A stretch of 48,262 nt of DNA from an uncultured bacterium. Its GTDB lineage: Bacteria > CSSED10-310 > CAZUFC01. The DNA is taken from positions 1-48,262 of the forward strand of contig CAZUFC010000063.1 in the NCBI GenBank assembly GCA_964619725.1, written 5' to 3'. Position 1 is the first letter of the stretch, and each line of letters begins with the position of its first letter. Shown here piece by piece: positions 666-16,399 of this stretch. Below the pieces are notes generated by a model that saw only the letters and a program-made list of their open reading frames with translations, did no database searches and was not told the DNA's origin. The position numbers and the translations under genes are program-made.

Positions 666-1562
666 ATGAACGAACATGATTTACCCAAAGACCAACTGGT
701 TGAGATTATTACAAAGATTACCAGGCAAGTGCTGCAACAGTATGGTTCGACTTTAAACGATGCTTCTGAGATTATTGTGGAGCCTTGCGATTGCAGCGGC
801 GTCGACCTGTCTGAGTGTACGAGTTGCGGATTGTGCATTGTTCGTCGGAATGACGTAAAGGAAGTATTGGATTCCGGTGCGGACCGGCTTGGCGCTAAAC
901 CGGGCATTAAAGACATTGACGGGTCATTAGGGTCCTATATTGATCACACTTTGTTGAAGCCCGATTCCACTGAAAAGGACCTGAAAACTTTATGCGACGA
1001 AGCCTTGAAGTACCGTTTTGCGGCTGTCTGCGTGAATCCGGCGAACGTGAATTATTGTGTTGAACGGTTGAAAGGATCGCCGATTAAGGTCGCCGCTGTC
1101 GTCGGTTTTCCCCTGGGAGCTACGACTACGTCCATAAAAGCGGCTGAAACACGCGAAGCCGTATTGAACGGAGCAAAAGAAATCGACATGGTCATAAATA
1201 TAGGGGCGCTGAAAAACGGGGATTACCAGACTGTATACGAGGATATTAAATCCGTGGTAAATGCGGCCGGAGGCAATGTGGTCAAGGTTATTCTGGAAAC
1301 GGCTCTTTTGGACGAAGAGGGCAAAATAGCAGGTTGCGTTTTATCGAAAGCAGCCGGCGCTCATTACGTTAAAACTTCGACCGGTTTCGGGCCGGGCGGT
1401 GCGACCACTGACGATGTTGTTCTCATGAGAAGAATTGTCGGCCCATCAATGGGGGTCAAAGCATCGGGAGGCATAAGAGATCAGAAGACAGCTCAGAATA
1501 TGTTGAAAGCCGGGGCCACTCGCATCGGAGCCAGCGCTTCGGTAGCCATTGTACAAAGTTAA
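666..1562 (+). CDS. deoC: Deoxyribose-phosphate aldolase with N-terminal extension (putative encapsulation peptide plus Cys-rich segment)
   Basis: IDHTLLKP, VGFPLGA, EIDMVINIG, VKVILET, VKTSTGF (Schiff-base Lys), GVKASGGIR, GATRIGAS. About 85 extra N-terminal residues. Confidence 0.96.
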   Translation: MNEHDLPKDQLVEIITKITRQVLQQYGSTLNDASEIIVEPCDCSGVDLSECTSCGLCIVRRNDVKEVLDSGADRLGAKPGIKDIDGSLGSYIDHTLLKPDSTEKDLKTLCDEALKYRFAAVCVNPANVNYCVERLKGSPIKVAAVVGFPLGATTTSIKAAETREAVLNGAKEIDMVINIGALKNGDYQTVYEDIKSVVNAAGGNVVKVILETALLDEEGKIAGCVLSKAAGAHYVKTSTGFGPGGATTDDVVLMRRIVGPSMGVKASGGIRDQKTAQNMLKAGATRIGASASVAIVQS

Positions 1563-1589
1563 TAAATCATCATTAGAACCGGGCCTGAC

Positions 1590-2894
1590 GTGGATACATA
1601 TGATATCATCTTAAAAAAAAGAGACGGCGGGAACCTGTCTGCTGGAGAATTGGATTTTATGATTAAAGGCATCGTTTCCAGCCGCATACCGGATTATCAG
1701 ATAGCCGCCTTTCTGATGGCCGTTTTCATTCGCGGAATGTCAAGGCAGGAAACGATTGATTTGACGTGCTCTATGATGAAATCAGGCGAAGAGATTATCC
1801 CGGATGAATTGGGTCCCGTTACTGCGGATAAGCATAGTACCGGCGGCGTAGGAGACAAAGTCAGCATTCCGCTGGCGCCGTTGGTCGCGTCAGCCGGCGT
1901 ACGAGTGCCTATGATGTCCGGAAGAGGACTGGGGCACACGGGCGGAACGCTCGACAAGCTGGAATCCATTCCAGGATTTTCCTGCATAATGAACAAAAGA
2001 AAATTCATCGAGGCAATGGAAACCGTCGGAGCTGCCATTATCGGCCAAACCGAAAAACTCGTGCCCGCCGACAAAAAGCTTTACGCTTTAAGAGACGTCA
2101 CAGCCACTATCGATTCCATTCCCCTGATCGCCGCCAGTATCATGAGCAAAAAAATTGCAGCGGGTCCCAGGGCAATCGTTTTCGACGTTAAAATAGGCTC
2201 CGGGTCTTTTTTGAAGTATCCTGGCAAGGCGGCCGAATTAGCTGAACTGATGATCGATATTGGTTCTGGGCTTAACAGGAATGTCAGCGCATATATTACT
2301 CAAATGGATCAACCTCTGGGCCGTTGCGTAGGTAATGCTCTCGAAATTAAAGAGTCGATCCTGTTCCTGAAAGGCGAAGGCCCGGAAGATTTAAAGGAAA
2401 TCGTATTTAAACTTGGCGCTGAGATGCTTCTTCTGTCCGGAAAATCAAGCGATTTGAATAGCGCTGAAAAAATTCTCGACGAATGCCTCGCTTCCGGACA
2501 AGCCCTTCAGAAATTTCAGGAAATGATTCAGAACCAGGGCGGCGACACCTCGGTTATAGATGATGCCGGTAAACTGCCTTCCGCTGAAAAGGTCACAATA
2601 CTGGAATCTCCTGAATCCGGTTATATTGAAAAATGCGATGCTCTACAAATCGGACGAACGGGCGTGTCGTTGGGGGCCGGCAGAGAGAGGATGGACTCAG
2701 TTGTCGATCCATCTGTCGGATTCGTTTTAAACGCCAAAAAATACGATTATATCGAGAAGGGCGAACCGTTGTTGGAAATTCACCACTCCGCCGATTTGCC
2801 TGAAAGTTTTTTCTCTCGACTGAGAAGCGCTTACAGCTTTTCTGAGGTCGAACCGACAAAAGAACCTCTCATCATTAAAAGAATAGCCGGCTGA
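1590..2894 (+). CDS. pdp: Pyrimidine-nucleoside/thymidine phosphorylase
   Basis: IILKKRDG, PDYQIAAFLMA, DKHSTGGVGDK, SGRGLGHTGGTLDKLESIPG, ADKKLYALRDVTAT, SIMSKK. GTG start. Confidence 0.96.
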   Translation: MDTYDIILKKRDGGNLSAGELDFMIKGIVSSRIPDYQIAAFLMAVFIRGMSRQETIDLTCSMMKSGEEIIPDELGPVTADKHSTGGVGDKVSIPLAPLVASAGVRVPMMSGRGLGHTGGTLDKLESIPGFSCIMNKRKFIEAMETVGAAIIGQTEKLVPADKKLYALRDVTATIDSIPLIAASIMSKKIAAGPRAIVFDVKIGSGSFLKYPGKAAELAELMIDIGSGLNRNVSAYITQMDQPLGRCVGNALEIKESILFLKGEGPEDLKEIVFKLGAEMLLLSGKSSDLNSAEKILDECLASGQALQKFQEMIQNQGGDTSVIDDAGKLPSAEKVTILESPESGYIEKCDALQIGRTGVSLGAGRERMDSVVDPSVGFVLNAKKYDYIEKGEPLLEIHHSADLPESFFSRLRSAYSFSEVEPTKEPLIIKRIAG

Positions 2895-2896
2895 AA

Positions 2897-3148
2897 ATGA
2901 AAGAAAAACACCTCCTTATTCTTATTCTTATCGCTTTTGCGGGCGGCGCTCTCGTATTATTGGTGAACGAAAACTATCGAATTGAAAAAAATCTCATGGG
3001 AAATTCTGATTATTGCCCGGATATTGAAATTTCAGAAGAAGAAGTAAAGGAAGAATCGGAAAGAAGAAATCGTTCTTCAGAGAGCGAAAATTATGAAGAG
3101 ACGATTGACGATACCGATGAAGACAACCCAAATTTGAGATATTATTGA
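2897..3148 (+). CDS. Small protein with N-terminal transmembrane/signal helix and acidic tail; function unknown
   Basis: Fills the pdp-comEC gap (2-nt and 15-nt spacers). Hydrophobic LLILILIAFAGGALVLLV followed by an E/D-rich tail. Confidence 0.7.
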   Translation: MKEKHLLILILIAFAGGALVLLVNENYRIEKNLMGNSDYCPDIEISEEEVKEESERRNRSSESENYEETIDDTDEDNPNLRYY

Positions 3149-3163
3149 TTTTGTTTACCCGCA

Positions 3164-6007
3164 ATGATTAAAGCGGTTCAAATTCTAACGCCTGCGTTCA
3201 TAGCCGGGATACTTGTTGCCCGTTTCACCGATATCCCGGAGTTATCGCTGATTCCTGTTTTTTTCGTTAGCGCATTTTTTCTATTGATGTCGCTGATCTT
3301 CTATTTAAAGGGAAAAAGTTATCAGTTTTTCCTGATCTTCCCTGCTTTTCTCGGCGGCGCATACAACCTGCAATATCACATGGCGACTGATGTCCCGGGC
3401 CACCTCGCCTTATACCTTGAAGAGAGCTCCTTTAAGAAAAACACGGCTGCGGTCGGCACCATCACGGCAGAACCCGAAATACGGGAAAGATACACGCTGC
3501 TTGAGCTGACGCCTGAATACATTAAAAAAAATTATCAGGACAGCAAAATTCTCATCAGTCGTGGAAAAATAGCGGTACGCATTTATCCGAGCATCGGTGA
3601 TTTATTCTATCAGTTGTCTTATGGCGATAAAATATTAATTAAAGACGTCGCATTGACTCCGCCCCCGGAACCGAATAATCCCGGATTGTTTAACTATAGC
3701 GAGTATCTGTCCAACAGAAACTTTTTTTCTCAGGTCAGCATTCGAAATTCCTGGCAAATAGAAAAAATGGGCGTCGGTGATTTTAATTTTCTCGTTCGTT
3801 TTGCTCTGTCCGTTAAAAATAATATTTTACAAACTATAAAGAAGACAATGCCTTTTCCGGAATCGACGTTTCTCGGAGGAGTGCTTCTGGGGCTGAGATT
3901 CGGTTTGCCGGGAGATATCGTTGACCAGTTTCGCGCGGCCGGCGTTTCGCACGTTCTGGCCGTATCGGGTCTCCACGTAACGATCATCACGGCCCTGTTC
4001 ATGGGCATATTTTCCATGATGAAAATGCCGAAACGGGCGGCAGGACCTATAATTATTTTCTTTCTGATTATTTTTACTCTTATAACGGGTGCGCGACCCT
4101 CCACAGTCAGGGCCGCCATAATGAACAGTCTGGGCCTTATCTTATACTACATCATCGGACGCGGAATTAAATCTTCCCTGCTTTTCGCTATCTCCGCCTC
4201 CGCTCTGTTGATTCTATTGAACAATCCCCTGATTCTCGGTGAAGCTTCTTTTCTATTTTCTTTCACCGCCGTACTTTCCTTGGGACTCCTGACCAACCCC
4301 GTATCCCGCTTTATGAAAAGAAGACTCAGGTCTCCCGCCTCATTCGCTGTTTTGTTCTTTGCCGTTTACCTTATCGGCGCGTTTATTACTGACAGCCGCT
4401 TTTACTTGCATCCTCCCAATGCCTTCTGGATATTGCTCGCTCTTATACCGCTTTCCTTTTTTATACAAAAATTCACCCATATTCGTTTTACTTTTGATCA
4501 CTTGCCCTTTTGGCTTCGCTCCTTTGTTGCAGCCCAGGCCGCCATTCAACTGGGAATGGCTCCCTTGACGGCTCAATTTTTCAACCGGGTATCCGTTTCT
4601 GCGCCGATTGCCAATTTTGTCGCCATACCGCTGATAGGCGTTATCGTGCAAATCGGTCTTATAGCCGGTCTCCTGGCTTTTATCCCAGTCGTCGGAATCT
4701 ATTTAGCTCTTATTCTTAACGCCTTCAACTGGTTATGCGTTAAATTTTTTCTGGGTACGGCTGCATTCTTCTCGAACAATTTTCCCTATCCGAGGCTTAC
4801 TCCACCAGGATTGGAATTTTTCCTGATCTATTTCTTCATTCTTTTCCTCTTCATGAATAGAGAAAAAATCATTTACGGAACCAGAGAGTATTTTCCGGTG
4901 TGGAAGAAACTTCTCAAAACCAGCAGGCGCATTAGATTACAAACCGTCACAGGCTGCATCCTTCTGGCGATTATCGCCGCTTCCGGCGCGAAACTAGCGC
5001 TTTCCCAGCAGGAAGAACCGCTTCGCATTCTGTTCATTGATCCCCGATCTTTCAATGTCGGTAAAGGCAGCTCCGTCCTGGTGCAAACTCCTGCCGGAAA
5101 GTCTATCCTGATTGATGGAGCAACCAGAAGGGCTTCTTTTTACGACAGAATCGTCGATTTCGATCTCGGTGAAAGATTATTAACTCCTTTGCTTTTGAAA
5201 AAAAACATCTCTACGCTTGATCTGGTCGTTCTTACGAATCCCCTGCCGCAAAATATCGGGGGTTTGATTTCGGTTGTAAAAAATTTTAGAATTTTATTGG
5301 AGGCGGATAGTCTTCCGGTCGATGAAATTCCCGACAGAAAATTGTCCCTCGAAGACATCGCTGCTGCCGAAGACGATCCGGCGCTTGAATATTTGTCGCC
5401 CGAAGAGGTTTCAATGATGCTTGACGATTTAAATGATTATTTTGAACTCCTGGGTTATTCCGATACGCGCCGATTACGACTGACGGAAGGTATGACTTTA
5501 TACAGCGAATCCCTTGATTCTGGAAAAACGCTTACGATAGATGTCCTTAATCCCCCCGCTGATCCTGATATCCTTACAGGTATTAAAAACAGAAGCATCG
5601 TTCTCCAGATCAATTATGGTGAACTCAGCGTCCTCCTGCCAAGCAATATTAACGAAGCCGCAGAATCCAGACTCGTGGAAAAATACGGCGCTGAACTAAG
5701 AAGCCAGGTCTTGCTCGTCCCGGATAACGGAAGCCGTGATGCCAGTTCTTTGCCATTCATTAATGCCGTTTCTCCTGAAGTAGCCATATTCCAATATAAA
5801 TATGAACGATATGCCAATCGTTACTTCAAGCGCAACTGGCAAAAATACAGCGAAAAAGGCATTACATGCTTCAGAACAGATAAATCAGGCGCCGTGTCTC
5901 TATTTTCCGACGGCTCAACAATGCGTCTTGAAACTGTTTTTCAACCTTCGTTCATCAAATCAGAATCCCAAGATAGCCCAGCAAATGAATGGAACTTCGA
6001 ATTATGA
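3164..6007 (+). CDS. comEC: ComEC/Rec2 DNA-uptake channel (OB-like N domain, Competence domain, degenerate MBL domain)
   Basis: PNNPGLFNY, FRAAGVSHVLAVSGLHV, TGARPSTVRAAIM, SFLFSFTAV, many TM helices, C-terminal MBL-fold remnants (SILIDG, FRTDKSGAV). Confidence 0.93.
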   Translation: MIKAVQILTPAFIAGILVARFTDIPELSLIPVFFVSAFFLLMSLIFYLKGKSYQFFLIFPAFLGGAYNLQYHMATDVPGHLALYLEESSFKKNTAAVGTITAEPEIRERYTLLELTPEYIKKNYQDSKILISRGKIAVRIYPSIGDLFYQLSYGDKILIKDVALTPPPEPNNPGLFNYSEYLSNRNFFSQVSIRNSWQIEKMGVGDFNFLVRFALSVKNNILQTIKKTMPFPESTFLGGVLLGLRFGLPGDIVDQFRAAGVSHVLAVSGLHVTIITALFMGIFSMMKMPKRAAGPIIIFFLIIFTLITGARPSTVRAAIMNSLGLILYYIIGRGIKSSLLFAISASALLILLNNPLILGEASFLFSFTAVLSLGLLTNPVSRFMKRRLRSPASFAVLFFAVYLIGAFITDSRFYLHPPNAFWILLALIPLSFFIQKFTHIRFTFDHLPFWLRSFVAAQAAIQLGMAPLTAQFFNRVSVSAPIANFVAIPLIGVIVQIGLIAGLLAFIPVVGIYLALILNAFNWLCVKFFLGTAAFFSNNFPYPRLTPPGLEFFLIYFFILFLFMNREKIIYGTREYFPVWKKLLKTSRRIRLQTVTGCILLAIIAASGAKLALSQQEEPLRILFIDPRSFNVGKGSSVLVQTPAGKSILIDGATRRASFYDRIVDFDLGERLLTPLLLKKNISTLDLVVLTNPLPQNIGGLISVVKNFRILLEADSLPVDEIPDRKLSLEDIAAAEDDPALEYLSPEEVSMMLDDLNDYFELLGYSDTRRLRLTEGMTLYSESLDSGKTLTIDVLNPPADPDILTGIKNRSIVLQINYGELSVLLPSNINEAAESRLVEKYGAELRSQVLLVPDNGSRDASSLPFINAVSPEVAIFQYKYERYANRYFKRNWQKYSEKGITCFRTDKSGAVSLFSDGSTMRLETVFQPSFIKSESQDSPANEWNFEL

Positions 6008-6720
6008 AATTCAAAGTCCAGCACCTGTTTCTGTTATTTATTTCTCTAGTCGGCTTCTTTACGGGTCTGTGGTTTTTAATTCAGCAAAGCGTAGTTGAAA
6101 CAGTCGTCGTAGTTCATGCCGTTGGTCCAGATTTCGATGAAATTTCGTTGGATTATCCCTGGGGGACCCCTCCTCCCTCTACCGCAGAACCCGCATACAC
6201 GCCCTTAACGAAATTGTCGAATGAAGAGCTGGAGGAATTTCGAGAAAAATTCAAAATAAACGTTAACGAGGGTTCTGCCGAAGAGTTAATGAAATTGAAA
6301 GGAGTCGGACCTGCTACAGCGGCTGACATCATTGAATACAGACGAACGAAAGGTCCCTTCAGAAGCATCCGGGATTTAGCGAAAGTCAAAGGCATTGGGG
6401 CAAAAACGCTGGCTAAATTCGCAGACGACATAACTGTCGGACACCCTGAAGACATTACTTTTCCGCAACCCGATGAAAGAAAAAAATCATCGAGGAGCAC
6501 GGCAAGCGGCAGCGTTTCCGTCACGGAAAAAATTAATATAAATACAGCCGGTTCGGCTGAACTGCAAAAATTACCTCGTGTAGGACCCAAGACAGCAGAA
6601 AAGATAATTCAATACAGAGAAGAAAACGGGCCGTTCCTTCGAAAAGAGGACATAAAGAAAATCAAAGGAATCGGTCCTAAAACATTCGAAAACATGAAAG
6701 AGATCATAGAGGTGGATTAG
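6004..6720 (+). CDS. comEA: ComEA-family DNA receptor, membrane-anchored, two tandem helix-hairpin-helix domains
   Basis: KINVN...LKGVGPATA..IIEYR...GPF...KVKGIG and KININTA...LPRVGPKTAEKIIQYR...GPF...IKGIGPKT. Start placed at 6004 (ATGA overlap with the comEC stop); the ORF track starts at 5989. Confidence 0.92.
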   Translation: MKFKVQHLFLLFISLVGFFTGLWFLIQQSVVETVVVVHAVGPDFDEISLDYPWGTPPPSTAEPAYTPLTKLSNEELEEFREKFKINVNEGSAEELMKLKGVGPATAADIIEYRRTKGPFRSIRDLAKVKGIGAKTLAKFADDITVGHPEDITFPQPDERKKSSRSTASGSVSVTEKININTAGSAELQKLPRVGPKTAEKIIQYREENGPFLRKEDIKKIKGIGPKTFENMKEIIEVD

Positions 6721-6830
6721 AGTTTTTTTCAAACAAAAAGATCATCCAATTATGTTGATTTTTCTTGATGAAAAAAGTCCGTTTATTTTCGATCATCAAG
6801 AGAATCTCCGATTGAAAAGGAGAAACGACA

Positions 6831-7817
6831 ATGAATGAAAATAAAAATTACCCTGTGGTCGAGGACCCGGGTTTCTTTTCTAAAAGCCTTATCCCTGTGT
6901 TGATTTTCTTTATCGCTGCTGTGATTTTGTTCGGCTTATCTTTTCTCAGGGGAGATGAAAATCCGTCAACAGCAGCGGCGGACGAAATCATAGAGACAGA
7001 GAAATCGACTGAACAGTCCCGTATGATCGTGAATTTTCTCGATATAGGAGAAGGAGACAGCATACTGATCCAAAGTCCAAGCGGGAAAAACATTCTCATA
7101 GACGGGGGAATGGGCTCGTCGGAATATTCTCACTTCGATGCGGGGGAAAATGTTATAGTTCCCATGCTTCACAATCGGAATATAGAAGTTCTTGACATTG
7201 TAATCTCCACGCACCAGCATTTCGATCATATCGGAGGATTGATAAGCGTTCTTCGTTCCTTTCCCGTAAAAAAGTATATTGACAACAAATTTGCTTTTGG
7301 AACTGAAAGTTACGCTGAACTTTTACAGATAGTAAAAGAGAAAAATATCCCCTATGAGAAAGGAGTCGCGGGAGATATTATAGATATTGACCCGAATATA
7401 TGGATCCAAATTCTTCACCCAGTCGAAGACAGTTATTTCAAAGGGACGCGTTCCGATGCCAACAACAACTCAATCGTCATGAAACTCATCTATCACAAAA
7501 TAGATTTCCTTTTGACCGGCGACGTTGAAACCGTCGCTGAGCAGACTCTACTGGAATACGGTCAAGCATTGAAAAGCTTCTTTTTAAAAGTCCCGCATCA
7601 TGGCTCGGAAACGTCTACTTCATCTCTTTTTCTCAAGACAGTCGATCCGAAAGTAGCCATTATTCCTTCAGGAGAAGGAAATCGTCACGGCCATCCAGAT
7701 TCGGTAGTCGTTAACCGTTTGCGGGATTACGGCGTGAAAATTTACAGAACCGACTATCACGGAACCATCTCGGTCATAACCGACGGATTCGGTTATAAAA
7801 TAATTACGGAAAAATGA
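6831..7817 (+). CDS. Stand-alone ComEC-like metallo-beta-lactamase-fold hydrolase (putative nuclease) with N-terminal TM anchor
   Basis: FLDIGEGDS, ILIDGG, STHQHFDHIGG, NNNSIV, LLTGD, KVPHHGS, NRHGHP, YRTDYHGTI. AGGAG RBS upstream. Confidence 0.9.
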   Translation: MNENKNYPVVEDPGFFSKSLIPVLIFFIAAVILFGLSFLRGDENPSTAAADEIIETEKSTEQSRMIVNFLDIGEGDSILIQSPSGKNILIDGGMGSSEYSHFDAGENVIVPMLHNRNIEVLDIVISTHQHFDHIGGLISVLRSFPVKKYIDNKFAFGTESYAELLQIVKEKNIPYEKGVAGDIIDIDPNIWIQILHPVEDSYFKGTRSDANNNSIVMKLIYHKIDFLLTGDVETVAEQTLLEYGQALKSFFLKVPHHGSETSTSSLFLKTVDPKVAIIPSGEGNRHGHPDSVVVNRLRDYGVKIYRTDYHGTISVITDGFGYKIITEK

Positions 7818-9118
7818 TTTTTCTTCCTTATGTTCTCAGCATATCCGCCGTCGTCTTCCTCATTAACTTTTACTTTATGGTTCAATACCTGCGAACCAGG
7901 ACAGACGACGCTGATGTAAAATCTGCTTCCAATCTCTCCTCCATCAGCGGCTTGCCCTATTTACCCGAAGAGTCATCAGATACTGACGAACCTGAAACTT
8001 CTCCATATGCCTTTCAGGAAAATCAGAAAACAACCGTCATTTCTCAACCGACCGAAAAACATCTGGATTTAATGCCTGTCAATGAAGGAGAAAAGGACTT
8101 AATCGTCACTCATTCGGACTTTGACGGATTCATTTCCGGCGCTTTATTACAAAGAAAACTCGGCAAAAAAGCGGAAATTTCCTTCAGTTCCCCATTGAGA
8201 ATCGGAAAAGACCTGACTAAATCATCGCTCCAGCTTCCTTTCTATAATCGAATATTCGTCGCCGACATTAGACTGAATCCTTCGTTTGAAAAAGAGGTCG
8301 AACTTTTTTTGAAAAATGCCGCCAATAATAACGTTTCTGTGTTTTGGTACGATCATCACATCTGGGCGGCTTCATCCTTTTCGATCCTCAAAAGTCACTG
8401 TGAGGATTGCATTGTAGATACTAATTTTAAAACGGCTGCCGAAATTATCCAGCGCCGTTTGTTTCAAAAGGATGAATATTCTGAACGGCTGATTCATTTT
8501 ATAAAGGGTAAAACAATTAAATCCGATCCCGATTGGGACGAGGATATACGCTTCTTGTTGTCGGAATTGCAAACGCGTCTTCCCGTTGAAATGAAACAAG
8601 GCGTCATATCAAAACTGGCTTTCAACGAACCCCTTGAGACAGCCGAAAAGCGTTTAATCAAAAATGGACGCAAGAGAAGCATTTTCACCGAAAGGATAGC
8701 CCGAAAAAAACACCTGACTGTAATCACTCACAGAAAAAGGAAATTCATCATCATTGATTTAAGAACATTCCGCTATGAACAAACTGAGTCTGGACAGAGG
8801 CTGTACGTCATTGAAAAGAAAAAACCGGAATCCGTCGTCGGAATGAAAGCATGTCGAGAACATGATGCTGACTTCGCTCTGATTCTCTGGTCAAATGAAC
8901 GATTTTCACTCTACCAGGGAATCGATAAATCGGTAGACTTTTCTCAGCTTTTCGGCATTCAAAAATTCGCAAAGTATCCGGTTAAGATCAGAGGGCATTC
9001 CTATGCTGCAGGCGGAGAAATTTCAATAAATTTTATAACTAAGGTAAGATTAATTTTTAATTGGAGCCTTCCAAGTGAAATTCTTGCGCTGATCGATGGA
9101 TTAAAAGAAAATTTTTAA
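7814..9118 (+). CDS. DHH-family phosphoesterase-like protein with N-terminal membrane anchor
   Basis: THSDFDG, VADI, WYDHH and C-terminal RGHSYAAGG (DHHA1-like). ATGA overlap with the upstream gene. Confidence 0.75.
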   Translation: MIFLPYVLSISAVVFLINFYFMVQYLRTRTDDADVKSASNLSSISGLPYLPEESSDTDEPETSPYAFQENQKTTVISQPTEKHLDLMPVNEGEKDLIVTHSDFDGFISGALLQRKLGKKAEISFSSPLRIGKDLTKSSLQLPFYNRIFVADIRLNPSFEKEVELFLKNAANNNVSVFWYDHHIWAASSFSILKSHCEDCIVDTNFKTAAEIIQRRLFQKDEYSERLIHFIKGKTIKSDPDWDEDIRFLLSELQTRLPVEMKQGVISKLAFNEPLETAEKRLIKNGRKRSIFTERIARKKHLTVITHRKRKFIIIDLRTFRYEQTESGQRLYVIEKKKPESVVGMKACREHDADFALILWSNERFSLYQGIDKSVDFSQLFGIQKFAKYPVKIRGHSYAAGGEISINFITKVRLIFNWSLPSEILALIDGLKENF

Positions 9119-9138
9119 ATTTTGCCACGGAGACGAGA

Positions 9139-9684
9139 ATGGCTTCTGATTTTGACAGAATAGAATCCGTCGTTTTTTCCGAAAAGCAGATATCCCGAAG
9201 AATCAATGAACTTGGCCGACAAATTTCGGAAGATTACAGAGATAAATTTCCTCTTCTCATCGGCATACTTAGAGGAGCTTTTATTTTTTTAGCCGATCTG
9301 GCCCGTGCAATCCACATACCATGTACTTTCGACTTCATGGCAGTGAGCAGCTACGGATCGAAGACGAAAACCTCCGGGGTCGTTCGGATTTTGAAAGACC
9401 TGAACGAGCACATCCAGGACAGACATGTCATTTTGGTAGAAGATATCATAGATACGGGATTAACCCTGGATTATTTGATCCGCATACTCAAAGCTCGACA
9501 TCCCGCCAGTCTGAAAACATGCGCATTACTTGATAAAAAAGAATGCAGAAAAGCAGATATTCAGGCCGACTATACCGGATTTACGGTACCTGATGCCTTT
9601 ATGGTGGGTTACGGTCTGGATTTGGATCAGTCATTCCGTAATTTGCCTTATGTAGGCATATACAACGAAAACGCAGACGCATAA
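9139..9684 (+). CDS. hpt: Hypoxanthine(-guanine) phosphoribosyltransferase
   Basis: ILRGAFIFLADL, VSSYG, VILVEDIIDTGLTL (PRPP-binding motif), VGYGLD, RNLPY. Confidence 0.96.
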   Translation: MASDFDRIESVVFSEKQISRRINELGRQISEDYRDKFPLLIGILRGAFIFLADLARAIHIPCTFDFMAVSSYGSKTKTSGVVRILKDLNEHIQDRHVILVEDIIDTGLTLDYLIRILKARHPASLKTCALLDKKECRKADIQADYTGFTVPDAFMVGYGLDLDQSFRNLPYVGIYNENADA

Positions 9685-9712
9685 AAAGAATGCTTAAGGA
9701 GAATGAACCCGT

Positions 9713-11437
9713 ATGAGTTTGGAGAAACGCCTTCAGGTTGCAAGAGGATTAAGAAAAGCAGACCTGGTATTAAAAAACGCTCGAATAGTGAATTTGTTCA
9801 ATTACGAATGCATACCAGGAGATGTGGCTGTTCACAAGGGCAGAGTTGCAGGAATCGGTCGCTACAACGGAGTGGAGGAAGTAGATTTACAGGATCGTTA
9901 TCTTGCTCCCGGCCTGGTAGACGGACATGTTCACGTAGAAAGCTCTCTCGTTACAATCCGGGAATTTTCTAAAGCCGTCAGTTCGCGTGGAACGACGACA
10001 TGTATAATAGACCCGCATGAAATCGCCAATGTCATGGGACTAGAGGGAATTAATTATATGCTCAAATCCAGCAAATACAATCCCGTAGACATTTTTCTCA
10101 TGTTGCCCTCATGCGTGCCCTCGACCCATATGGAAACCGCCGGCGCTGAACTAAGGGCGATTGATCTTCTGCCTCTACTCCCTAATCCCTGGGTTTTAGG
10201 AATGGGCGAAATGATGAACTATATGGGCGTAATCAATGCCGATCCGGAAGTTTTGGAGAAAATAAAGATCGCTGAATCTAAAACAGTAGACGGCCATGCT
10301 CCTTCATTATCCTCGAACAATCTCTGTGCTTATGTTTCCGTCGGCATACGTTCCGATCATGAATGCACTACTCTGGAAGAAGCACAAGAAAAATTGCGCC
10401 TGGGGATGCATGTGATGATCAGGGAAGGCTCTTCTTCAAAAAACATGGAATCCATAATACCTTTGGTGAATCGCGGCAACGCTGAAAATTTTTCCCTGGT
10501 AACGGACGACAGGAATCCCAGAGACCTTTATGAAGAAGGTCACATTGACGCGCTCCTTAGAAAATCTGTGCAGAAATGCGGACTCGAACCTTTATTGGCT
10601 CTTAGGCTTGCGTCCCTCAGCACATGTCGGTATTTCGGATTACGGGACCGCGGAGCGATCGCTCCTGGCTACCTGGCTGATATGGTTGTTTTTGAGGACC
10701 TCCAGGATTTTGCAATCAAAATGGTACTGAAAAACGGCGAAATCATCCTCCAGGACGGAAAGCTGCTGTGGAATAAACCTCAAGCTCCTTTACCCCGTCT
10801 TCGCAGCTCAGTGAACACGAAATGGCTTAAAGTATCGGACTTTGAGATACCTTCCTCAGGCGACAAAGCCCGCATTATCGGAGTAATTCCTGGTCAAATA
10901 CTGACGGATCAAATAATCGACAACCCATTGATTGAAAAAGGCAAAGTCCTCTCCGACACCGACAGGGATATTTTAAAACTGGCTGTTATTGAAAGGCATA
11001 CAGGCTCATCAAATATCGGGCTCGGACTGGTCAAAGGATTCGGATTGAAAAACGGTGCGCTGGCCGGAACAATCGCCCATGATTCTCACAACCTGGTCGC
11101 AGTGGGAACGAATGATGAAGATATTTTCAACGCAGCCGTTCAGGTCATCAAAGATCAAGGAGGGCTTGCCGTTTCGATCAATAATAAAATCGCTGCCTCG
11201 CTTCCCTTGCCTATCGCCGGGTTAATGTCGGATCGCCCCCTGGAAGAAGTCGTAAATAATGTCTTTGATCTCATGAAAATCGCTAAATCTCTGGGTTGTA
11301 ATCTTCCAGACCCCTTCATGGCCCTTTCTTTTACTTCTTTGCCCGTTATACCGTCCTTGAAATTAACCGACAAAGGATTGGTGGACGTCAACCGTTTTGA
11401 ATTCGTTGACCTCTTCTTAAAGCCTGATCAGAAATGA
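9713..11437 (+). CDS. ade: Adenine deaminase
   Basis: DGHVHVESS, DPHEIANVMG, GEMMN, DGHAP, SDHEC, IREGS, VTDD, AHDSHN. Confidence 0.95.
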   Translation: MSLEKRLQVARGLRKADLVLKNARIVNLFNYECIPGDVAVHKGRVAGIGRYNGVEEVDLQDRYLAPGLVDGHVHVESSLVTIREFSKAVSSRGTTTCIIDPHEIANVMGLEGINYMLKSSKYNPVDIFLMLPSCVPSTHMETAGAELRAIDLLPLLPNPWVLGMGEMMNYMGVINADPEVLEKIKIAESKTVDGHAPSLSSNNLCAYVSVGIRSDHECTTLEEAQEKLRLGMHVMIREGSSSKNMESIIPLVNRGNAENFSLVTDDRNPRDLYEEGHIDALLRKSVQKCGLEPLLALRLASLSTCRYFGLRDRGAIAPGYLADMVVFEDLQDFAIKMVLKNGEIILQDGKLLWNKPQAPLPRLRSSVNTKWLKVSDFEIPSSGDKARIIGVIPGQILTDQIIDNPLIEKGKVLSDTDRDILKLAVIERHTGSSNIGLGLVKGFGLKNGALAGTIAHDSHNLVAVGTNDEDIFNAAVQVIKDQGGLAVSINNKIAASLPLPIAGLMSDRPLEEVVNNVFDLMKIAKSLGCNLPDPFMALSFTSLPVIPSLKLTDKGLVDVNRFEFVDLFLKPDQK

Positions 11438-12411
11438 AGGGCTTGATCTTTAAAAATAACCGTCTGCAACTCGTCCGCAATCTTCCTCTGCCTCAACTGA
11501 AAAATGATGACGCACTCATTCATATTAAGCTCGCAGGTATTTGTAAAACCGATCAGGCTATTTACGAAGGCTATATGAACTTCGAAGGCGTTCTCGGACA
11601 CGAATTCGTAGGCGTCGTCAAGGATGCCCGCAATAAGGACTGGGTTGGAAAAAGAGTCGTCGGTGAAATAAACATCGGCTGCAATTCCTGCGAATACTGT
11701 CAAAATAACATGTCAAGACACTGCCTCTCACGCTCTACCATTGGAATACTCGACCACGACGGGTGCTTCGCCGAATTCCTGTCACTCCCTGTTCAAAACC
11801 TGCATGCCGTTCCCCCTGATCTCCCTGATGAGGCAGCAGTGTTTACTGAACCCCTGGCCGCCGCTCTTGAAATCCTGGAACAGCGCCATGTGGAACCCGA
11901 TCACAATGTACTCGTTATCGGCGACGGAAATCTCGGCTTCCTTATCGCACTCACCCTCGTTTTAACAGGCTGCAGACTCATTATTGCAGGAAAACACGAA
12001 CAAAAATTGTCCGTCTTTCGTAAATCAATTAAAAATGTTGAAATTCTCAACTCCAGCTTAAATGTAAATTTGCTCGAGGAGCTCCAAAATAGTATGGATA
12101 TTGTGGTGGAGGCTTCCGGCTCCTGTTCCGGACTCCTCTCCGCGATCAAGGCCGTAAAGCCTAGGGGCACAATAATTTTGAAAAGTACCTATAACAAAAA
12201 TTCTTCAATCGATCTCACTCCTTTTATGGTCGATGAAATTTGCCTGCTTGGTTCTCGTTGCGGACCCTTTAAACCCGCTGTTCGACTCCTGGCTGAGGGA
12301 TTAATTGATCCCATCCCCTGGATTCAAAAAATATACCCTCTTGATCAAGCTGAGAAAGCTTTTTGTGAGATGCAGGAGACAAGCTCAAAAAAAATTCTGC
12401 TCAGAATCTGA
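11434..12411 (+). CDS. Zn-dependent medium-chain dehydrogenase (alcohol/threonine dehydrogenase-like)
   Basis: AGICKTD, GHEFVG, structural Zn motif CNSCEYC...C, EPLAA, Rossmann GDGNLG. ATGA overlap with ade. Confidence 0.9.
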   Translation: MKGLIFKNNRLQLVRNLPLPQLKNDDALIHIKLAGICKTDQAIYEGYMNFEGVLGHEFVGVVKDARNKDWVGKRVVGEINIGCNSCEYCQNNMSRHCLSRSTIGILDHDGCFAEFLSLPVQNLHAVPPDLPDEAAVFTEPLAAALEILEQRHVEPDHNVLVIGDGNLGFLIALTLVLTGCRLIIAGKHEQKLSVFRKSIKNVEILNSSLNVNLLEELQNSMDIVVEASGSCSGLLSAIKAVKPRGTIILKSTYNKNSSIDLTPFMVDEICLLGSRCGPFKPAVRLLAEGLIDPIPWIQKIYPLDQAEKAFCEMQETSSKKILLRI

Positions 12412-12785: not shown

Positions 12786-15700
12786 TTATTTCTTTTTTTG
12801 AATCAACTTTGAATCCGCGCTTTTTCCACCGCCGGCGCTCGGGTGTTGCGACCTGAATTGATGCTGAACAACCGCTAAATCCCTGATGGGTCCGTAAAAC
12901 GGACAGTAGATGCTGTCATGCTCCTTCATTGAAATCATGAATTGCTTATCTTTATCAGTATCTCCCAGATAAATCGTTGATTTGTACCGCATCTGGTCCG
13001 GGTGGAAATCACAATGCACTCCTGAAACCGACGCCCCATGCCCTCCTATAAGATCATAGGGTATTTCTCCGTCCAGCAAGTTCATCTCTCCTAACTCGAA
13101 ACAATTCAAATCCATATTGTTTTCCAGTTGTTGCTGCAATACTATCCTTCCATCGTAACAGTAAAAAGCGTAGAAATTTTGTTCCGGAGGGAAGGAACCT
13201 TGATCTGACTCCGTTAAAACGAAAACGTCGTAAAGCGGGTCTTCAATAGGAGAGTAAAATGTTGCTGCTTCAATGTCTATCACCGGTTGCGAAACGATCT
13301 GATGATGAACCTCAAGCGGAGGCAACATATGCAATTTGTAATTTTCAAGGAAGCGGATATTAAAATTGGTTCCGAGTATGAAGTCATGAACAAAATTCGA
13401 TGCAAACAGGTTCGCTGAGCAGATTTTGGTGATCCGTTCTCCTTCTCGCCATCCGTGAAGGGTCCTTAAATTGATCATTGCGTTTTTCAAGAGTTGAAAG
13501 AATTTTTTTCCTTGCCTTTCAGGATCGGAAAGAAAAATTCTCAAATCAGTCGCTTCCCTGGGGTCTAAGTTGGGGTCCGGCGTCAACGCGGTCACGAGGT
13601 CTTCAAAAGCATCGACCTTATCGGAAGGATAATAATTCCCTACCTCCAAATCTACTAAACGATGGTCCTTTACATTGAAACTGTATTCTTCCAGGATGGA
13701 ACCCATGACGAATTCAGGAGGTGAACCGATTCTGTCCTGAATATCATAGGTAATAATCGAACATTCATAGACTGATTGATCGAGCGGATTCATTCCGACT
13801 ATGATTTCATTTCTTTTGTCATTGTCAACGTCACCTGTCGATATCGCAACGATATGAGCCGGGAGCATTTTCTGAGGATTCATCGGATCCTCTATCCTGG
13901 AAGGAACGAGAACAGCCCTTTTCAATTTCTCGGAATGATTGCATACGTAGTTTAAGCCTTCTCCTCCGGGTTCGGGAAATTTGCTGTCGAAAAGAAATAG
14001 GTTATGTTTATCGTCTGGAAATCCATAAACGCCTGATAGGGCATCAGTAGCTACGATAACGTCCAGCCTGTTGTCTTCGTCTCCTTTTAAATCTTCAACC
14101 GTAATAGAAACCACTTTACCGGAAATGGCAGGCGAATTGACCGGGTTACCCTGCGGCGTATCCGACAACAGGAGTCGTCCCCTTCTAACCCATTTTCCGT
14201 CTTCTTCAGGATCAGGATTGAAAAAGAAATTGTTGACGTAAAACACTCTCACGTCGGAAGAACCAGTCAAATTATTGTCGCTTCCCACGACCACTTCAGC
14301 AATAAACTCATATGGGAAAACGGTGGGGGTCGGAGTAGGCGTGGGCGTAAATGTAGGAGTGGGGGACAAGGTAGGCGTTGCTGTTGCAGTCGGAGTATCA
14401 GTCGGTGAAGGAGTATGAGTGGGAGTCAAAGTCGGCGTTTTTGTGGGCGTGGCTGTCGCTGTCGGCGGTTCAGGAGTGTAGGTGGGAGGGACAGGCGTCC
14501 ACGTGGGCAACTCCCAGTTCCCGTAATAAATCGTCGGCCAATCGAATGGCCCCAAATTTAACTCCACCTCAAGTCCAGTCGTACAATCCCATCCCGGATA
14601 CAGTTCTTCATAAAGGTAATAAATTCCTGTCGGAATCCCACTGAATGTTATCTGCCCGTTTTCCGTCGCGCCGCTGTTGAAAATCCCGCCTACATCCGTA
14701 TACATCGTAAACCACCAGTCATCCATCAAGGACTCACCTTCATCATACTCAGCATCTCCGTCCAAATCGTGAAACTTGTAAACCGTTACAGCAGGCAGTT
14801 TAATGTTACCAAACTCGACGACTTGTGATTGCGCCGGAGATAAATCAACTTCTCTGGATATCCCGTTCGTCGGCGACCAACCCGGAACTTCCTCTTCATA
14901 TACAGTATAAAACGATGCAGGCAGGTCACTGAAAACCGCATTCCCGTTGCTGTTGGTCAGCTTTTCCTGTATCAGTATGTCGCCTTCATACAGGAACATC
15001 TTCCATCCTTCTCTGCTGGGTTCGCCGTCCTGTTGGACTCCGTCGATATTATAATCGAGAAATTTATGAGCTACGATTGTCCCGCCTGCAAGCCACTCCG
15101 CAACTGCTTCGCAAAAAACAGAACCAGTTACCGGCTCCGCTAAAACCAATAACTGCTTCGGAGGTTCTACCGGTTCAAATCTCACTCCTTGAGGAAGTAA
15201 AAAATCAGCGCTCGCCTCGATATTTGCATCCGACGGTTCACCCGTATCATTCGTCAGAGTGAAATATCCTTCACCGTACTCGTTCGTCACTACTGACGGA
15301 GTATCCAGTATTCCAAAATCCGTCGTCAGGTCAACGGTCAAACCCTCAACCGGGTTACCGTCCTGAGTCGCCGTCACCGTAAACTCTACAACCGTATCCG
15401 GAAGCGTCACAGCTCCATAGGCAGGCGCTATCTCTAAATTCGGCGGGTCCTGAGGCAATATGCAGGGACTCGGCACTGAGTCAATAATATCAGCGGCACG
15501 ATTAGCAACATCCAAGGGTCCGCTTACTACAAATCCGTCCGAAAAATTCCAGATGGCCGCTTGTCGCGCAGCAGCCTCCACATTCGTCAAGCCCGGCTCC
15601 GGCGGATACTCGTTTAAAATATAAGTGATTTGACAAAACGTCGGTCCGTCGCTCACAAAAGTATCACCCACCTTGATCGTATTATTCAAATCAATGCAAA

Positions 15701-15950: not shown

Positions 15951-16399
15951 CTTACCCTATCCCCTATCAAAGTTAAAAGTTACCCCCCTCATTCAGAGCG
16001 AATGTCCTTATCCGCCTCTGACAACCATCCATGAAAGCAATTTCGCAAACCGCCGGCGATTTTTCTCAAAGCAAACCAATAGCCTCTTCTATTTGTTGAT
16101 TTTTTTACCCAGATTGTCACCCGATTGAACTTTACCCAAAAAGCGGAATTACTTCCAGTACTCGTTATACTAAAACAAATTTTTTTGTCAAATGATAACG
16201 TGAAAAAAAATCAAATAATTTTACTCTTCTTTCGTTTTTGTGCGTCGATCATCGTTGATTTTCAACACAGAGTCCGATTTTGTTTCTCAAAGCTGCCTTT
16301 AATAATTCTTCACAACGATCCCGCAGTCACTTTTCAAATTTCGGCATTGATCAAAAATGGGTCTTTTGAAGTTACAATTCGACAGAATATCCCATCATT

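Follow-up and report, generated by a model that had tools for sequence, protein, structure and literature searches.

The question raised by this locus is why a DNA-uptake channel protein would keep a nuclease domain from which every metal ligand is gone, when an intact nuclease domain of the same type is encoded close by. The window, by which we mean the whole analysed stretch of 48,262 nucleotides, belongs to a MAG (6.5% contamination) of an uncultured bacterium of the phylum CSSED10-310. It contains a same-strand cluster from 666 to 12411, in which neighbouring gene ends overlap or lie at most ~110 nt apart. This spacing suggests co-transcription, and a scan for promoters and terminators gave matches at chance level only. 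The features are listed below with their predicted functions.

666..1562, + strand: deoC, deoxyribose-phosphate aldolase (TIGR00126, 285 bits, cut-off 117.3; PF01791)
1590..2894, + strand: pyrimidine-nucleoside (thymidine) phosphorylase, PyNP (TIGR02644, 533.6 bits, cut-off 409; three Pfam domains)
2897..3148, + strand: small ORF of 83 aa with an N-terminal hydrophobic helix and an acidic tail (no family match)
3164..6007, + strand: long ComEC, 947 aa, with OB fold, competence channel domain and ligand-less MBL domain (PF13567, PF03772)
5021..5962, + strand: pseudo-MBL C-terminal domain, ComEC residues 620-933 (BLASTP, AF2, Foldseek)
5237..5254, + strand: motif II remnant NPLPQN in place of HxHxDH, ComEC residues 692-697 (translation and alignment)
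5303..5467, + strand: ~50-residue insertion in the pseudo-MBL domain, predicted helical (BLASTP gap, alignments, domain model)
5989..6720, + strand: ComEA-like DNA receptor with an N-terminal hydrophobic helix and two HhH_3 modules (PF12836, 4.9e-46)
6831..7817, + strand: stand-alone ComEC-type MBL, 328 aa, with an N-terminal hydrophobic anchor and intact ligand motifs (PF00753, E 3.2e-19)
7814..9118, + strand: DHH-type phosphoesterase, 434 aa, with an N-terminal helix (motifs, AF2, Foldseek)
9139..9684, + strand: hypoxanthine(-guanine) phosphoribosyltransferase, HGPRT (TIGR01203, 217.8 bits, cut-off 150)
9713..11437, + strand: adenine deaminase (TIGR01178, 639 bits, cut-off 472.5)
11434..12411, + strand: Zn-dependent alcohol/threonine dehydrogenase-like protein, the final gene of the cluster (PF08240; NCBIfam matches all sub-threshold)

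The start of the ComEA-like gene overlaps the ComEC stop by 19 nt, and overlaps of 4 nt join the DHH-type gene to the stand-alone MBL gene and the dehydrogenase-like gene to that for adenine deaminase. In four relatives, weak homologues of the 83-aa ORF occupy the corresponding position, with 31-45% identity across stretches of 42-78 aa.

The long ComEC is recognized by the Pfam Competence domain PF03772 (E 2.3e-38, 132.6 bits, cut-off 23), which was also found by the genome search, and by PF13567 (DUF4131, OB fold; E 7.1e-19, 68.5 bits, cut-off 31.6). Against the NCBIfam equivalog TIGR00361 it scores 171.1 bits, under the cut-off of 190.05. Its orthologues are present in 9 of 13 genomes of the phylum, at 37-41% identity. 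The MBL domain of ComEC has been characterized as an Mn-dependent nuclease, loss of whose ligands lowers transformation (PMC8579336), and its ligands have been assigned to H598, D600, D602, H603 and D700 (PMC12455585). With ligand positions as defined in the latter source, the two-metal site (HxH/DxDH and the bridging Asp) is absent from the window's ComEC: NPLPQN stands for HxHxDH, with Leu at the second position of motif II, N828 stands for the bridging Asp, and every metal ligand is substituted. All four motif pairs that an earlier note on this DNA had set against each other are present in the translations, namely VVLTNPLPQNIGG (ComEC residues 688-700) versus VISTHQHFDHIGG (stand-alone MBL residues 124-136), LLPSNI (824-829) versus LLTGDV (227-232), VPDNGS (852-857) versus VPHHGS (254-259), and YERY (880-883) versus NRHGHP (284-289). 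Pfam Lactamase_B gave no match in ComEC, even at E 10.

Despite this loss, the pseudo-MBL domain is, according to its structural model, still of the MBL nuclease fold, which bears out the idea of a ligand-less yet folded domain on the channel. The AF2 model has a pLDDT of 89.2, and its best PDB match by Foldseek is the ComEC MBL domain of Moorella glycerini (9ic4; E 2.1e-24, TMt 0.86). After motif II, the domain carries an insertion of ~50 residues (ComEC residues ~714-768), with helices at 110-145 of the domain model and a conserved 'DP'; D738 is invariant across 11 orthologues. Judging by its ligand residues, this domain would be dead as a nuclease.

The stand-alone MBL matches Lactamase_B readily (PF00753, 70.1 bits, cut-off 22.7), and its ligand motifs D, HxHxDH (HQHFDH at 7212-7229), TGD, HHG and GHP are all intact, at positions that are invariant or nearly so across 34 orthologues. 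The earlier note was thus right that an intact paralogue lies near ComEC; as to position, it is the second gene downstream, with that for ComEA in between. Its best family match is to the C-terminal part of TIGR00361 (positions 438-663, 164 bits), and in 8 genomes of the phylum its orthologues lie beside the long ComEC gene. An N-terminal hydrophobic segment is found in all 52 surveyed stand-alone MBLs of at least 250 aa, which suggests that the protein is anchored in the membrane by its N-terminus, and the ligand residues predict an active nuclease. The ComEA-like protein matches PF12836 with 155 bits in two stretches and reaches 151.0 bits against TIGR01259 (cut-off 152.35).

The two MBL domains share 29% identity over 301 columns (BLASTP, E 2e-33). 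At this level they are clearly homologous, and the motif comparison is therefore one between equivalent positions and not between chance look-alikes. When 39 C-terminal domains of long ComECs were aligned together with 34 stand-alone MBLs, the latter had His, Asp and His at three motif II positions and the motif IV Asp in 34/34, whereas in motif II of the ComEC domains neither of the first two positions has His in any of the 39, Asp occurs in 2/39 and the last His in 2/39. Some dead domains retain single ligands, such as the motif IV Asp (9/39) or the His at the second HHG position (15/39). The maximum-likelihood tree does not show the two as sister paralogues, as had been supposed: in it the stand-alone MBLs fall in with the canonical ComEC domains, and the dead domains have a branch to themselves. 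Forcing dead and stand-alone domains together costs 19 lnL units and is not rejected (p-AU 0.099). The sub-clades of the two mirror one another in the tree, a pattern that indicates co-inheritance.

The long ComECs (~930-1280 aa) form a subfamily present in CSSED10-310, Riflebacteria, Elusimicrobia, a PVC group and other phyla. HxHxDH is missing in 14/14 long ComECs of relatives and kept in 12/12 neighbouring or related stand-alone MBLs, and the pattern H.[HD].DH occurs in none of the 71 long ComEC ORFs that include a C-terminal domain (79 loci, several phyla). In an exhaustive HMMER search, the motif is likewise found in none of the representatives P0028-P0121, which rank above the first canonical ComEC; canonical ComECs (~800 aa, motif present) begin at P0122. 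Among the 51 long-ComEC loci with at least 3.5 kb of downstream DNA, 44 encode an intact stand-alone MBL, which typically starts 0.6-0.9 kb past the ComEC stop and usually directly follows ComEA, itself present at 37/51. By contrast, neither a stand-alone MBL nor any catabolic gene was present at the 11 canonical ComEC loci from CSSED10-310 that served as control (~8 kb on each side); the co-occurrence survey proposed in the earlier note thus gave a strongly positive result. At five of the 51 loci the sole stand-alone MBL has no intact motif (four lack nearly all ligands, and that of L097 is partially substituted), and at two (L060, L064) it is missing; an adjacent active MBL is therefore not obligatory. 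Judging from this sequence distribution, ligand-less ComEC with a separate MBL is an old subfamily across several phyla, and its spread rules out a recent local duplication or local accident.

The window's genome also encodes a second, canonical ComEC of 783 aa with THKHPDH, TGD, HHGS and GHP, beside another ComEA. Both types coexist in other genomes of the phylum as well as in this 6.5%-contaminated MAG, canonical ComECs are intact in 10 of the 10 fetched from the phylum, and a shorter ComEC is also found in 4 of 5 genomes of other phyla with a long ComEC. Because a canonical ComEC with its own ComEA is present, the long-ComEC locus constitutes a second, paralogous uptake system.

What this system may serve is suggested by its neighbourhood. 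The curated cut-offs are exceeded by each of deoC, the pyrimidine-nucleoside phosphorylase, HGPRT and adenine deaminase, whereas the 434-aa protein stays under the Pfam DHH cut-off of 28.1 (E 0.017, 15.9 bits; an orthologue reaches 27.5). The signature motifs of the DHH family are DxD, D, DHH and G-H, and in the 434-aa protein H100, D102, D104, D151, D180-H181-H182 and G394-H395 show no variation, or at least 90% conservation, among 14 orthologues. For its AF2 model (pLDDT 83.4), the Foldseek matches listed with E 1e-10 to 1e-5 are DHH-family structures (moderate TM of 0.3-0.6), nearly all of them enzymes such as PAP phosphatase, NrnA, RecJ and GdpP, and a DHH/DHHA1 two-domain fold is supported by the model. 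The order deoC, PyNP, ComEC, ComEA, MBL, (PD-(D/E)XK), DHH is conserved in 8 genomes, deoC upstream of the long ComEC being kept in CSSED10-310 relatives. Relatives add a PD-(D/E)XK nuclease (PF12705, 2.5e-54), which is absent from the window's own operon, and a cytidine deaminase; neither a 5'-nucleotidase nor a phosphopentomutase was seen in the cluster. The earlier suggestion that the arrangement suits feeding gains support from this operon, with its deoC, PyNP, DHH phosphoesterase, HGPRT and adenine deaminase, and the catabolic gene cluster favours nutritional DNA uptake. Across the 51 long-ComEC loci, PyNP lies upstream at 16, deoC is found at 9, a DHH-like gene at 15 and a PD-(D/E)XK gene at 15, and most Riflebacteria loci consist of core ComEC, ComEA and MBL without catabolic genes. 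These genes are, by their distribution, lineage-specific, and the nutritional reading is therefore supported mainly for the CSSED10-310 and PVC-group loci.

Taken as a whole, the locus is probably, with only modest confidence, a second DNA-uptake module paralogous to the canonical ComEA/ComEC, with its nuclease acting in trans, for nutrition or nucleotide salvage. ComEA would retain double-stranded DNA arriving at the outer side of the cytoplasmic membrane, and the nuclease activity that is built into canonical ComEC in cis would here be supplied in trans by the free-standing MBL. The OB fold and MBL domain of ComEC have been described as periplasmic and as jointly forming the channel entrance (PMC13539106); the ligand-less domain may have been retained for its part in shaping the channel mouth, jointly with the OB fold, and in guiding DNA. 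The single strand reaching the cytoplasm would be degraded by the DHH-type phosphoesterase, in relatives also by the PD-(D/E)XK nuclease, and the products would pass to pyrimidine-nucleoside phosphorylase, deoxyribose-phosphate aldolase, adenine deaminase and HGPRT. The canonical ComEC would stay available for transformation.

The same anatomy could instead serve genetic transformation, which we regard as unlikely. In that case the long ComEC would open a second route to competence, used for instance under other conditions or with other types of DNA, and its closeness to nucleoside genes in some lineages would be incidental or would only help to recycle the degraded strand. The Riflebacteria loci without catabolic genes and the three DprA-family genes of the window's genome are in line with this. 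So is S. pneumoniae, which transforms with a ComEC MBL domain carrying Asn for His, Glu for Asp and Asn for the bridging Asp, the non-transported strand being degraded by EndA, which both sources describe simply as a membrane-bound endonuclease (PMC8579336, PMC12455585). Similar substitutions (N/S, E/Q, N/R, N/G) occur in long-ComEC domains; in the window's ComEC, however, the second motif II position is Leu and all ligands are gone. The separate nuclease here is a ComEC-type MBL of the same operon, whereas EndA is not known to be an MBL-fold protein. The window's system, moreover, is a second ComEC linked to nucleoside catabolism, beside a canonical channel that already has an intact nuclease and its own ComEA. 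The module's neighbours in CSSED10-310, arranged in a conserved order, are intracellular nucleases and nucleoside-degrading enzymes, which would destroy rather than protect incoming DNA, and none of these genes lies near canonical ComEC (11 loci).

More doubtful is a pseudoenzyme-enzyme pair, in which the ligand-less domain would mainly dock the stand-alone MBL as a heterodimer at the channel mouth. CPSF100 and IntS9 are inactive MBL subunits that hold their active partners CPSF73 and IntS11 in RNA 3'-end processing, and by analogy a ligand-poor MBL paralogue may be kept here beside an active one. Integrator and Ysh1 (CPSF-type) chains are among the distant Foldseek matches of the pseudo-MBL domain, the two genes are co-inherited across phyla with mirrored sub-clades, and the dead domain has a conserved lineage-specific insertion. 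The proteins here, by contrast, have no beta-CASP domain and belong to another branch of the superfamily, and their physical pairing is hypothetical. Since the stand-alone copy has no intact motif at 5/51 loci and is absent at 2, docking an active enzyme cannot be the sole reason for keeping the domain. It is very improbable that the stand-alone MBL leaves incoming DNA untouched and is instead another envelope phosphodiesterase or a defence nuclease, with the long ComEC working without any strand degradation: its partial PADLOC matches to the defence families LmuA (9e-26), RTasMBL and Avs1a, and the pneumococcal phosphorylcholine esterase Pce among the fold's closest non-ComEC structural relatives (Foldseek), stand against its best family match to the ComEC C-terminal domain, its grouping with canonical ComEC nuclease domains in the tree, its linkage in intact form to ComEC/ComEA at 44/51 loci, and a cluster that showed neither a protease nor an ATPase nor any other defence partner.

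The second, nutritional uptake module remains the preferred reading. Its ComEC resembles canonical ComEC/Rec2 (B. subtilis and Moorella type; TIGR00361) in three-domain order, MBL fold and adjoining ComEA gene, and differs in having no two-metal ligands, in the helical insertion, in being ~150 residues longer, in its sub-threshold TIGR00361 score, in coexisting with a canonical copy and in its link to a separate MBL gene. Split and reduced ComECs (Competence-only, OB + Competence) have been surveyed by Pimentel & Zhang 2018, with domains scored by Pfam matches (PMC6299819); under that scheme a window-type ComEC would count as 'DUF4131 + Competence', that is, without Lactamase_B, whereas its MBL domain still exists as a folded, conserved unit that PF00753 fails to detect. 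The available part of that survey addresses neither ligand state nor neighbouring stand-alone MBL genes (PMC6299819).

A broader reading, plausible to us but somewhat short of probable, is that long ComEC, ComEA and the trans-acting MBL make up a dedicated 'DNA-eating' importer, an old paralogue of the transformation channel in several mostly uncultured phyla. In such an importer the nuclease would be detached from the channel, and imported strands would go directly to intracellular nucleases and into the breakdown of nucleosides. If this is true, nutritional and genetic DNA uptake would be carried out by separate, recognizable machines in one cell.

From 666 to 12411 of the window, every gene lies on the + strand, with neighbouring ends that either overlap or stand no more than ~110 nt apart, and the cluster reads as follows.

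666-1562, + strand: deoC (TIGR00126, 285 bits)
1590-2894, + strand: pyrimidine-nucleoside phosphorylase, PyNP (TIGR02644, 534 bits)
2897-3148, + strand: small ORF of 83 aa with a hydrophobic N-terminus, matching no family
3164-6007, + strand: ComEC of 947 aa, with DUF4131 and Competence domains
5989-6720, + strand: ComEA-like protein with two HhH_3 modules
6831-7817, + strand: metallo-beta-lactamase (MBL)-fold protein of 328 aa (Lactamase_B)
7814-9118, + strand: 434-aa protein, putative DHH-type phosphoesterase (no family above cut-off; motifs and fold match)
9139-9684, + strand: HGPRT (TIGR01203, 218 bits)
9713-11437, + strand: adenine deaminase (TIGR01178, 639 bits)
11434-12411, + strand: Zn-dehydrogenase-like protein (PF08240)

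The small ORF immediately upstream of ComEC encodes a hydrophobic helix followed by an acidic tail, and four relatives have ORFs of 85-102 aa with weak similarity at this position. In the ComEA-like protein, the tandem HhH_3 modules (residues ~85-150 and 180-240) lie behind an N-terminal hydrophobic helix. Beyond the cluster, a 1054-aa protein encoded on the - strand (12786-15950), with weak matches to Big_1, SpaA, SdrD_B and a thioester (TED) domain, looks like an adhesin, and the rest of the window (16.5-48 kb) is coded mostly on the - strand. A scan for promoters and terminators found no more of them than expected from shuffled sequence.

It had been claimed in the earlier note that the C-terminal MBL domain of this ComEC has lost its metal ligands motif by motif, while the stand-alone MBL protein two genes away keeps them, and the alignment confirms this. 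The last ~330 residues of ComEC share 29% identity with the stand-alone MBL over 301 columns (E 2e-33), and the motif comparison therefore concerns homologous positions: NPLPQN in ComEC against HQHFDH in the stand-alone MBL at motif II, PSN against TGD at the bridging Asp, DNGS against HHGS at the HHG motif, and a position without His against GHP. Pfam Lactamase_B is matched at 3.2e-19 in the stand-alone MBL, and the same search of ComEC gave no match even at E 10. [quoted passage not shown] The domain has kept its fold and shows no decay. After motif II it carries an insertion of ~50 residues (~714-768), predicted to form three helices, in which D738 is invariant across 11 orthologues. An artefact or pseudogene is ruled out by the open frame, the confident model and the same-length, same-state orthologues in many genomes. 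As for the stand-alone protein, an N-terminal hydrophobic segment that could serve as its anchor is present in 52/52 such MBLs of at least 250 aa. A complex prediction for the dead domain (39-row alignment) and the stand-alone MBL (34-row alignment) scored 0.00, which gives no answer either way.

The genome to which the window belongs is a 9.17-Mb MAG (90.9% complete, 6.5% contamination), and on another contig it encodes a canonical ComEC of 783 aa with THKHPDH, TGD, HHGS and GHP, adjoining a 169-aa ComEA; the window ComEC is therefore a second, divergent paralogue and not the sole channel. MAG contamination as the source of the two types is ruled out, because nine other genomes of the phylum hold a full-length long ComEC together with a canonical one. 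The HxHxDH motif is intact in all 10 canonical ComECs fetched from the phylum. In other phyla, a shorter ComEC likewise accompanies the long form in 4/5 genomes, and the fifth has two long copies. Three genes of the DprA family (PF02481), each scoring above the cut-off, are also present in the window genome (contigs C2, C175 and C129), as are further ComEC-type MBL domains (C4:28178-28906, locus L136; C5 ~80319-81320, locus L137; C131 ~15314-16132). Of these MBL domains, one is a 310-aa stand-alone protein with intact HPHPDH and a very long branch, and the other two form part of longer open frames, of 958 aa (with HIDVDH) and of 1848 aa.

Ligand loss is a property of the long-ComEC subfamily as a whole. 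Among 13 genomes of the same phylum, nine contain a full-length orthologue (37-41% identity, about 930-1010 aa), two contain more divergent long ComECs, and two, with completeness of 86% and 78%, gave only weak canonical-type matches. In a MAFFT alignment, HxHxDH is not intact in any of 14 long ComECs (e.g. SCPNPNFSGG, TCPDAECSGG and TSFEFRHIGG), one of which retains 'DH' alone, and the residues at the former ligand positions vary between genomes; the motif is kept in 12/12 stand-alone MBLs. A locus search with the single ComEC protein found none, but an alignment query succeeded: a profile of 11 long ComECs recovered 79 loci in the species genomes of GTDB, whose records bear the labels CSSED10-310, Riflebacteria/Ozemobacteraceae, PVC group, Elusimicrobia, Hydrogenedentota, Sumerlaeota, Schekmanbacteria, Tritonobacter, Ignavibacteria and others. 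H.[HD].DH occurs in 0/71 long-ComEC ORFs in which the C-terminal domain is present, the remaining eight loci ending before it. In an exhaustive search of 1.84 billion representatives with this profile, the motif was absent from all those ranked above the first canonical ComEC (P0028-P0121; the MBL HMM detects no domain in 12 of them, and some are fragments), and from P0122 on the matches are ComECs of ~800 aa with intact motifs. A word-indexed protein search with the C-terminal domain returned only distant ComECs (21-37% identity), nearly all with PF00753. Column by column, a joint alignment gives the following counts.

Residues at the ligand columns in 34 stand-alone MBLs and 39 dead ComEC domains
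First motif-II His: His in 34/34 stand-alone; His in 0/39 dead
Second motif-II position: His in 26/34 and Asp in 8/34 stand-alone; His in 0/39 dead
Motif-II Asp: Asp in 34/34 stand-alone; Asp in 2/39 dead (Glu in 29/39)
Last motif-II His: His in 34/34 stand-alone; His in 2/39 dead
Bridging Asp (motif IV): Asp in 34/34 stand-alone; Asp in 9/39 dead

The earlier note had also called for a survey of whether ligand-less ComEC and a stand-alone MBL gene co-occur, and this association held. Loci were picked by likeness to the long-ComEC profile, dead domain included, and not by their neighbours; in 51 of the 79, the 3' end of ComEC is complete and followed by at least 3.5 kb of sequence. A stand-alone MBL with intact motifs is present in 44 of these 51, starting mostly 0.6-0.9 kb past the ComEC stop, and ComEA in 37; five have only a stand-alone MBL without the intact motif (L097, L110, L113, L120 and L121), and two have none (L060 and L064). 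In contrast, around 11 canonical ComEC genes from the phylum of the window, taken with ~8 kb to either side, no locus (0/11) has a stand-alone ComEC-type MBL, and none has deoC, PyNP, DHH-like or PD-(D/E)XK genes. No P value is given because related genomes are not independent. In eight genomes of the phylum, the order is deoC, PyNP, (small ORF), long ComEC, ComEA, MBL, PD-(D/E)XK nuclease and 434-aa homologue; in the ninth, the contig stops after ComEA and the MBL orthologue opens another contig. As a description, that ComECs with a pseudo-nuclease form a subfamily linked to an intact MBL encoded in trans is held with very high confidence.

Several loci depart from this arrangement. In G004, a Schekmanbacteria-labelled genome, a divergent long ComEC (L064/L043) with the partial site SSIEPDH, TGD and AHG may be an intermediate state; in L064, the 7 kb downstream of ComEC contain no MBL gene, and a stand-alone MBL orthologue, 40% identical, lies on another contig. 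In four Elusimicrobia-labelled loci (L110, L113, L120 and L121), ligands are lost both from the ComEC domain and from the adjacent MBL of 334-335 aa, where HxHxDH is replaced by, e.g., SPFPNY or SPDAGF; a PD-(D/E)XK nuclease gene adjoins, followed by a second ComEC-like gene in all but L113. Seven PVC-group-labelled loci (L057-L059, L061-L063 and L073) encode long ComECs of ~1263-1280 aa, with ~300 extra residues, and ComEA as two small ORFs, the module being flanked by PyNP and a DHH-like gene. One PVC-group genome holds two long copies on different contigs (L062 and L063), and a canonical ComEC was not found there. The Saccharibacteria-labelled L123 and L124 represent a different, split arrangement, in which ComEC takes the form of a 495-508-aa competence protein and a separate MBL of 293-296 aa, its motifs intact, follows after ~900 nt; in the tree, the MBLs of these two loci stand apart on a long branch.

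The earlier note further called for a tree to test whether the two domains are sister paralogues. An IQ-TREE analysis (LG+C20+F+G4 PMSF; 89 rows, 277 columns) covered 33 dead domains, 24 adjacent intact stand-alone MBLs, 26 canonical ComEC domains, three ligand-less stand-alone MBLs and three other stand-alone MBLs; the tree is unrooted, with dead domains on long branches and a bootstrap that had not fully settled. One branch (97/81) has every dead domain to one side of it, and the adjacent stand-alone MBLs, all 24, cluster with three canonical representatives (92/95), amid other canonical domains. The three ligand-less stand-alone MBLs, which come from the Elusimicrobia-labelled loci above, form their own clade (100/100). 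Forcing dead domains and adjacent stand-alone MBLs into one clade costs 18.98 lnL units (p-AU 0.099, superseding the p of 0.71 from a quick tree), so sister paralogy is not the best tree, yet it is not rejected. Sub-groups common to both parts of the tree, namely two Riflebacteria groups, the PVC group with Tritonobacter, CSSED10-310 and an Elusimicrobia group, indicate joint inheritance of the two genes.

Among the downstream genes, the 434-aa protein scores 15.9 bits against Pfam DHH and an orthologue 27.5 bits, both below the cut-off of 28.1. A PDB search with the single sequence gave nothing useful, and a profile search gave weak archaeal RecJ matches alone (E 0.006-0.016). The family was settled by a fold search with the AF2 model (pLDDT 83.4), whose listed matches, at E 1e-10 to 1e-5 and moderate TM-scores, come from the DHH family and are nearly all enzymes, such as PAP phosphatase, NrnA, RecJ, GdpP and PggH. 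H100, D102, D104, D151, D180-H181-H182 and G394-H395 are conserved across 14 orthologues, and by these motifs and the model fold the protein, which starts with a long hydrophobic helix, is classed as a putative DHH-type phosphoesterase. In relatives, a PD-(D/E)XK nuclease of 540-580 aa (PF12705, 2.5e-54) lies between the MBL and DHH genes and a cytidine deaminase behind the latter; the window lacks both and has HGPRT and adenine deaminase in their stead. PyNP occurs in 16 of the 51 long-ComEC loci, PD-(D/E)XK and DHH-like genes in 15 each, deoC in nine and cytidine deaminase in six. The core therefore consists of long ComEC, ComEA and MBL, to which particular lineages have added catabolic and nuclease genes, most strongly in CSSED10-310 and PVC-group loci.

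The nearest precedent is ComEC/EndA of Streptococcus pneumoniae, whose ComEC MBL domain carries Asn for His, Glu for Asp and Asn for the bridging Asp, the other strand being degraded by the membrane-bound nuclease EndA (PMC8579336, PMC12455585). In contrast to that system, the putative trans nuclease here belongs to the ComEC-type MBLs and is encoded in the operon, the window ComEC retains no ligand, the long ComEC is a conserved paralogous subfamily beside a canonical one, and the system is linked to catabolic genes. Full-text literature searches, with the supplements of the cited papers outside their scope, gave no account of the subfamily, the linked stand-alone MBL or the operon.

The ComEC C-terminal domain is established as a Mn-dependent nuclease whose ligand removal cuts transformation 10- to 100-fold (PMC8579336). 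In Moorella ComEC, the ligands are H598, D600, D602, H603 and D700, and most alanine substitutions abolish activity (PMC12455585). Cryo-EM places the OB fold and the MBL domain in the periplasm, in contact and forming the channel entrance (PMC13539106). From such published results and the anatomy of the locus, a chain of steps can be proposed. DNA would be bound by ComEA outside the cytoplasmic membrane, and the anchored stand-alone MBL would supply the nuclease in trans, while the ligand-less domain would be retained for structure at the channel mouth, its insertion possibly having a new role. The imported strand would be broken down by the DHH enzyme, and in relatives by the PD-(D/E)XK nuclease too, with products passed to PyNP, DeoC, adenine deaminase and HGPRT. 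For transformation, the cell would still have its canonical pair of ComEC and ComEA, together with the three DprA-family genes. We infer the topology, all activities and the nutritional purpose, and hold the whole chain, from ComEA to salvage, with modest confidence, as slightly better than an even prospect. What the earlier note observed is confirmed, and its reading as a subfunctionalisation suited to feeding is supported in part.

Censuses based on Pfam hits score the nuclease domain as 'lost' where it persists as a pseudoenzyme, and a ComEC domain-profile census of this kind (PMC6299819) would count long ComECs as lacking Lactamase_B. Half of all ComECs are said to have no nuclease domain, and the fate of the second strand is called unknown (PMC8579336); for the long-ComEC subfamily, a trans-encoded nuclease is one concrete answer. 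Whether bacteria import DNA as nutrition or as genetic material has long been disputed, and testing this has been difficult since a single machine appeared to do both. A recognisable second ComEC subfamily, marked by a ligand-less nuclease domain, a separately encoded nuclease, a canonical ComEC alongside and, in certain phyla, nuclease genes in one operon with genes for nucleoside breakdown, would give a genetic handle on nutritional uptake, and the test becomes concrete if a module-bearing organism can be grown.
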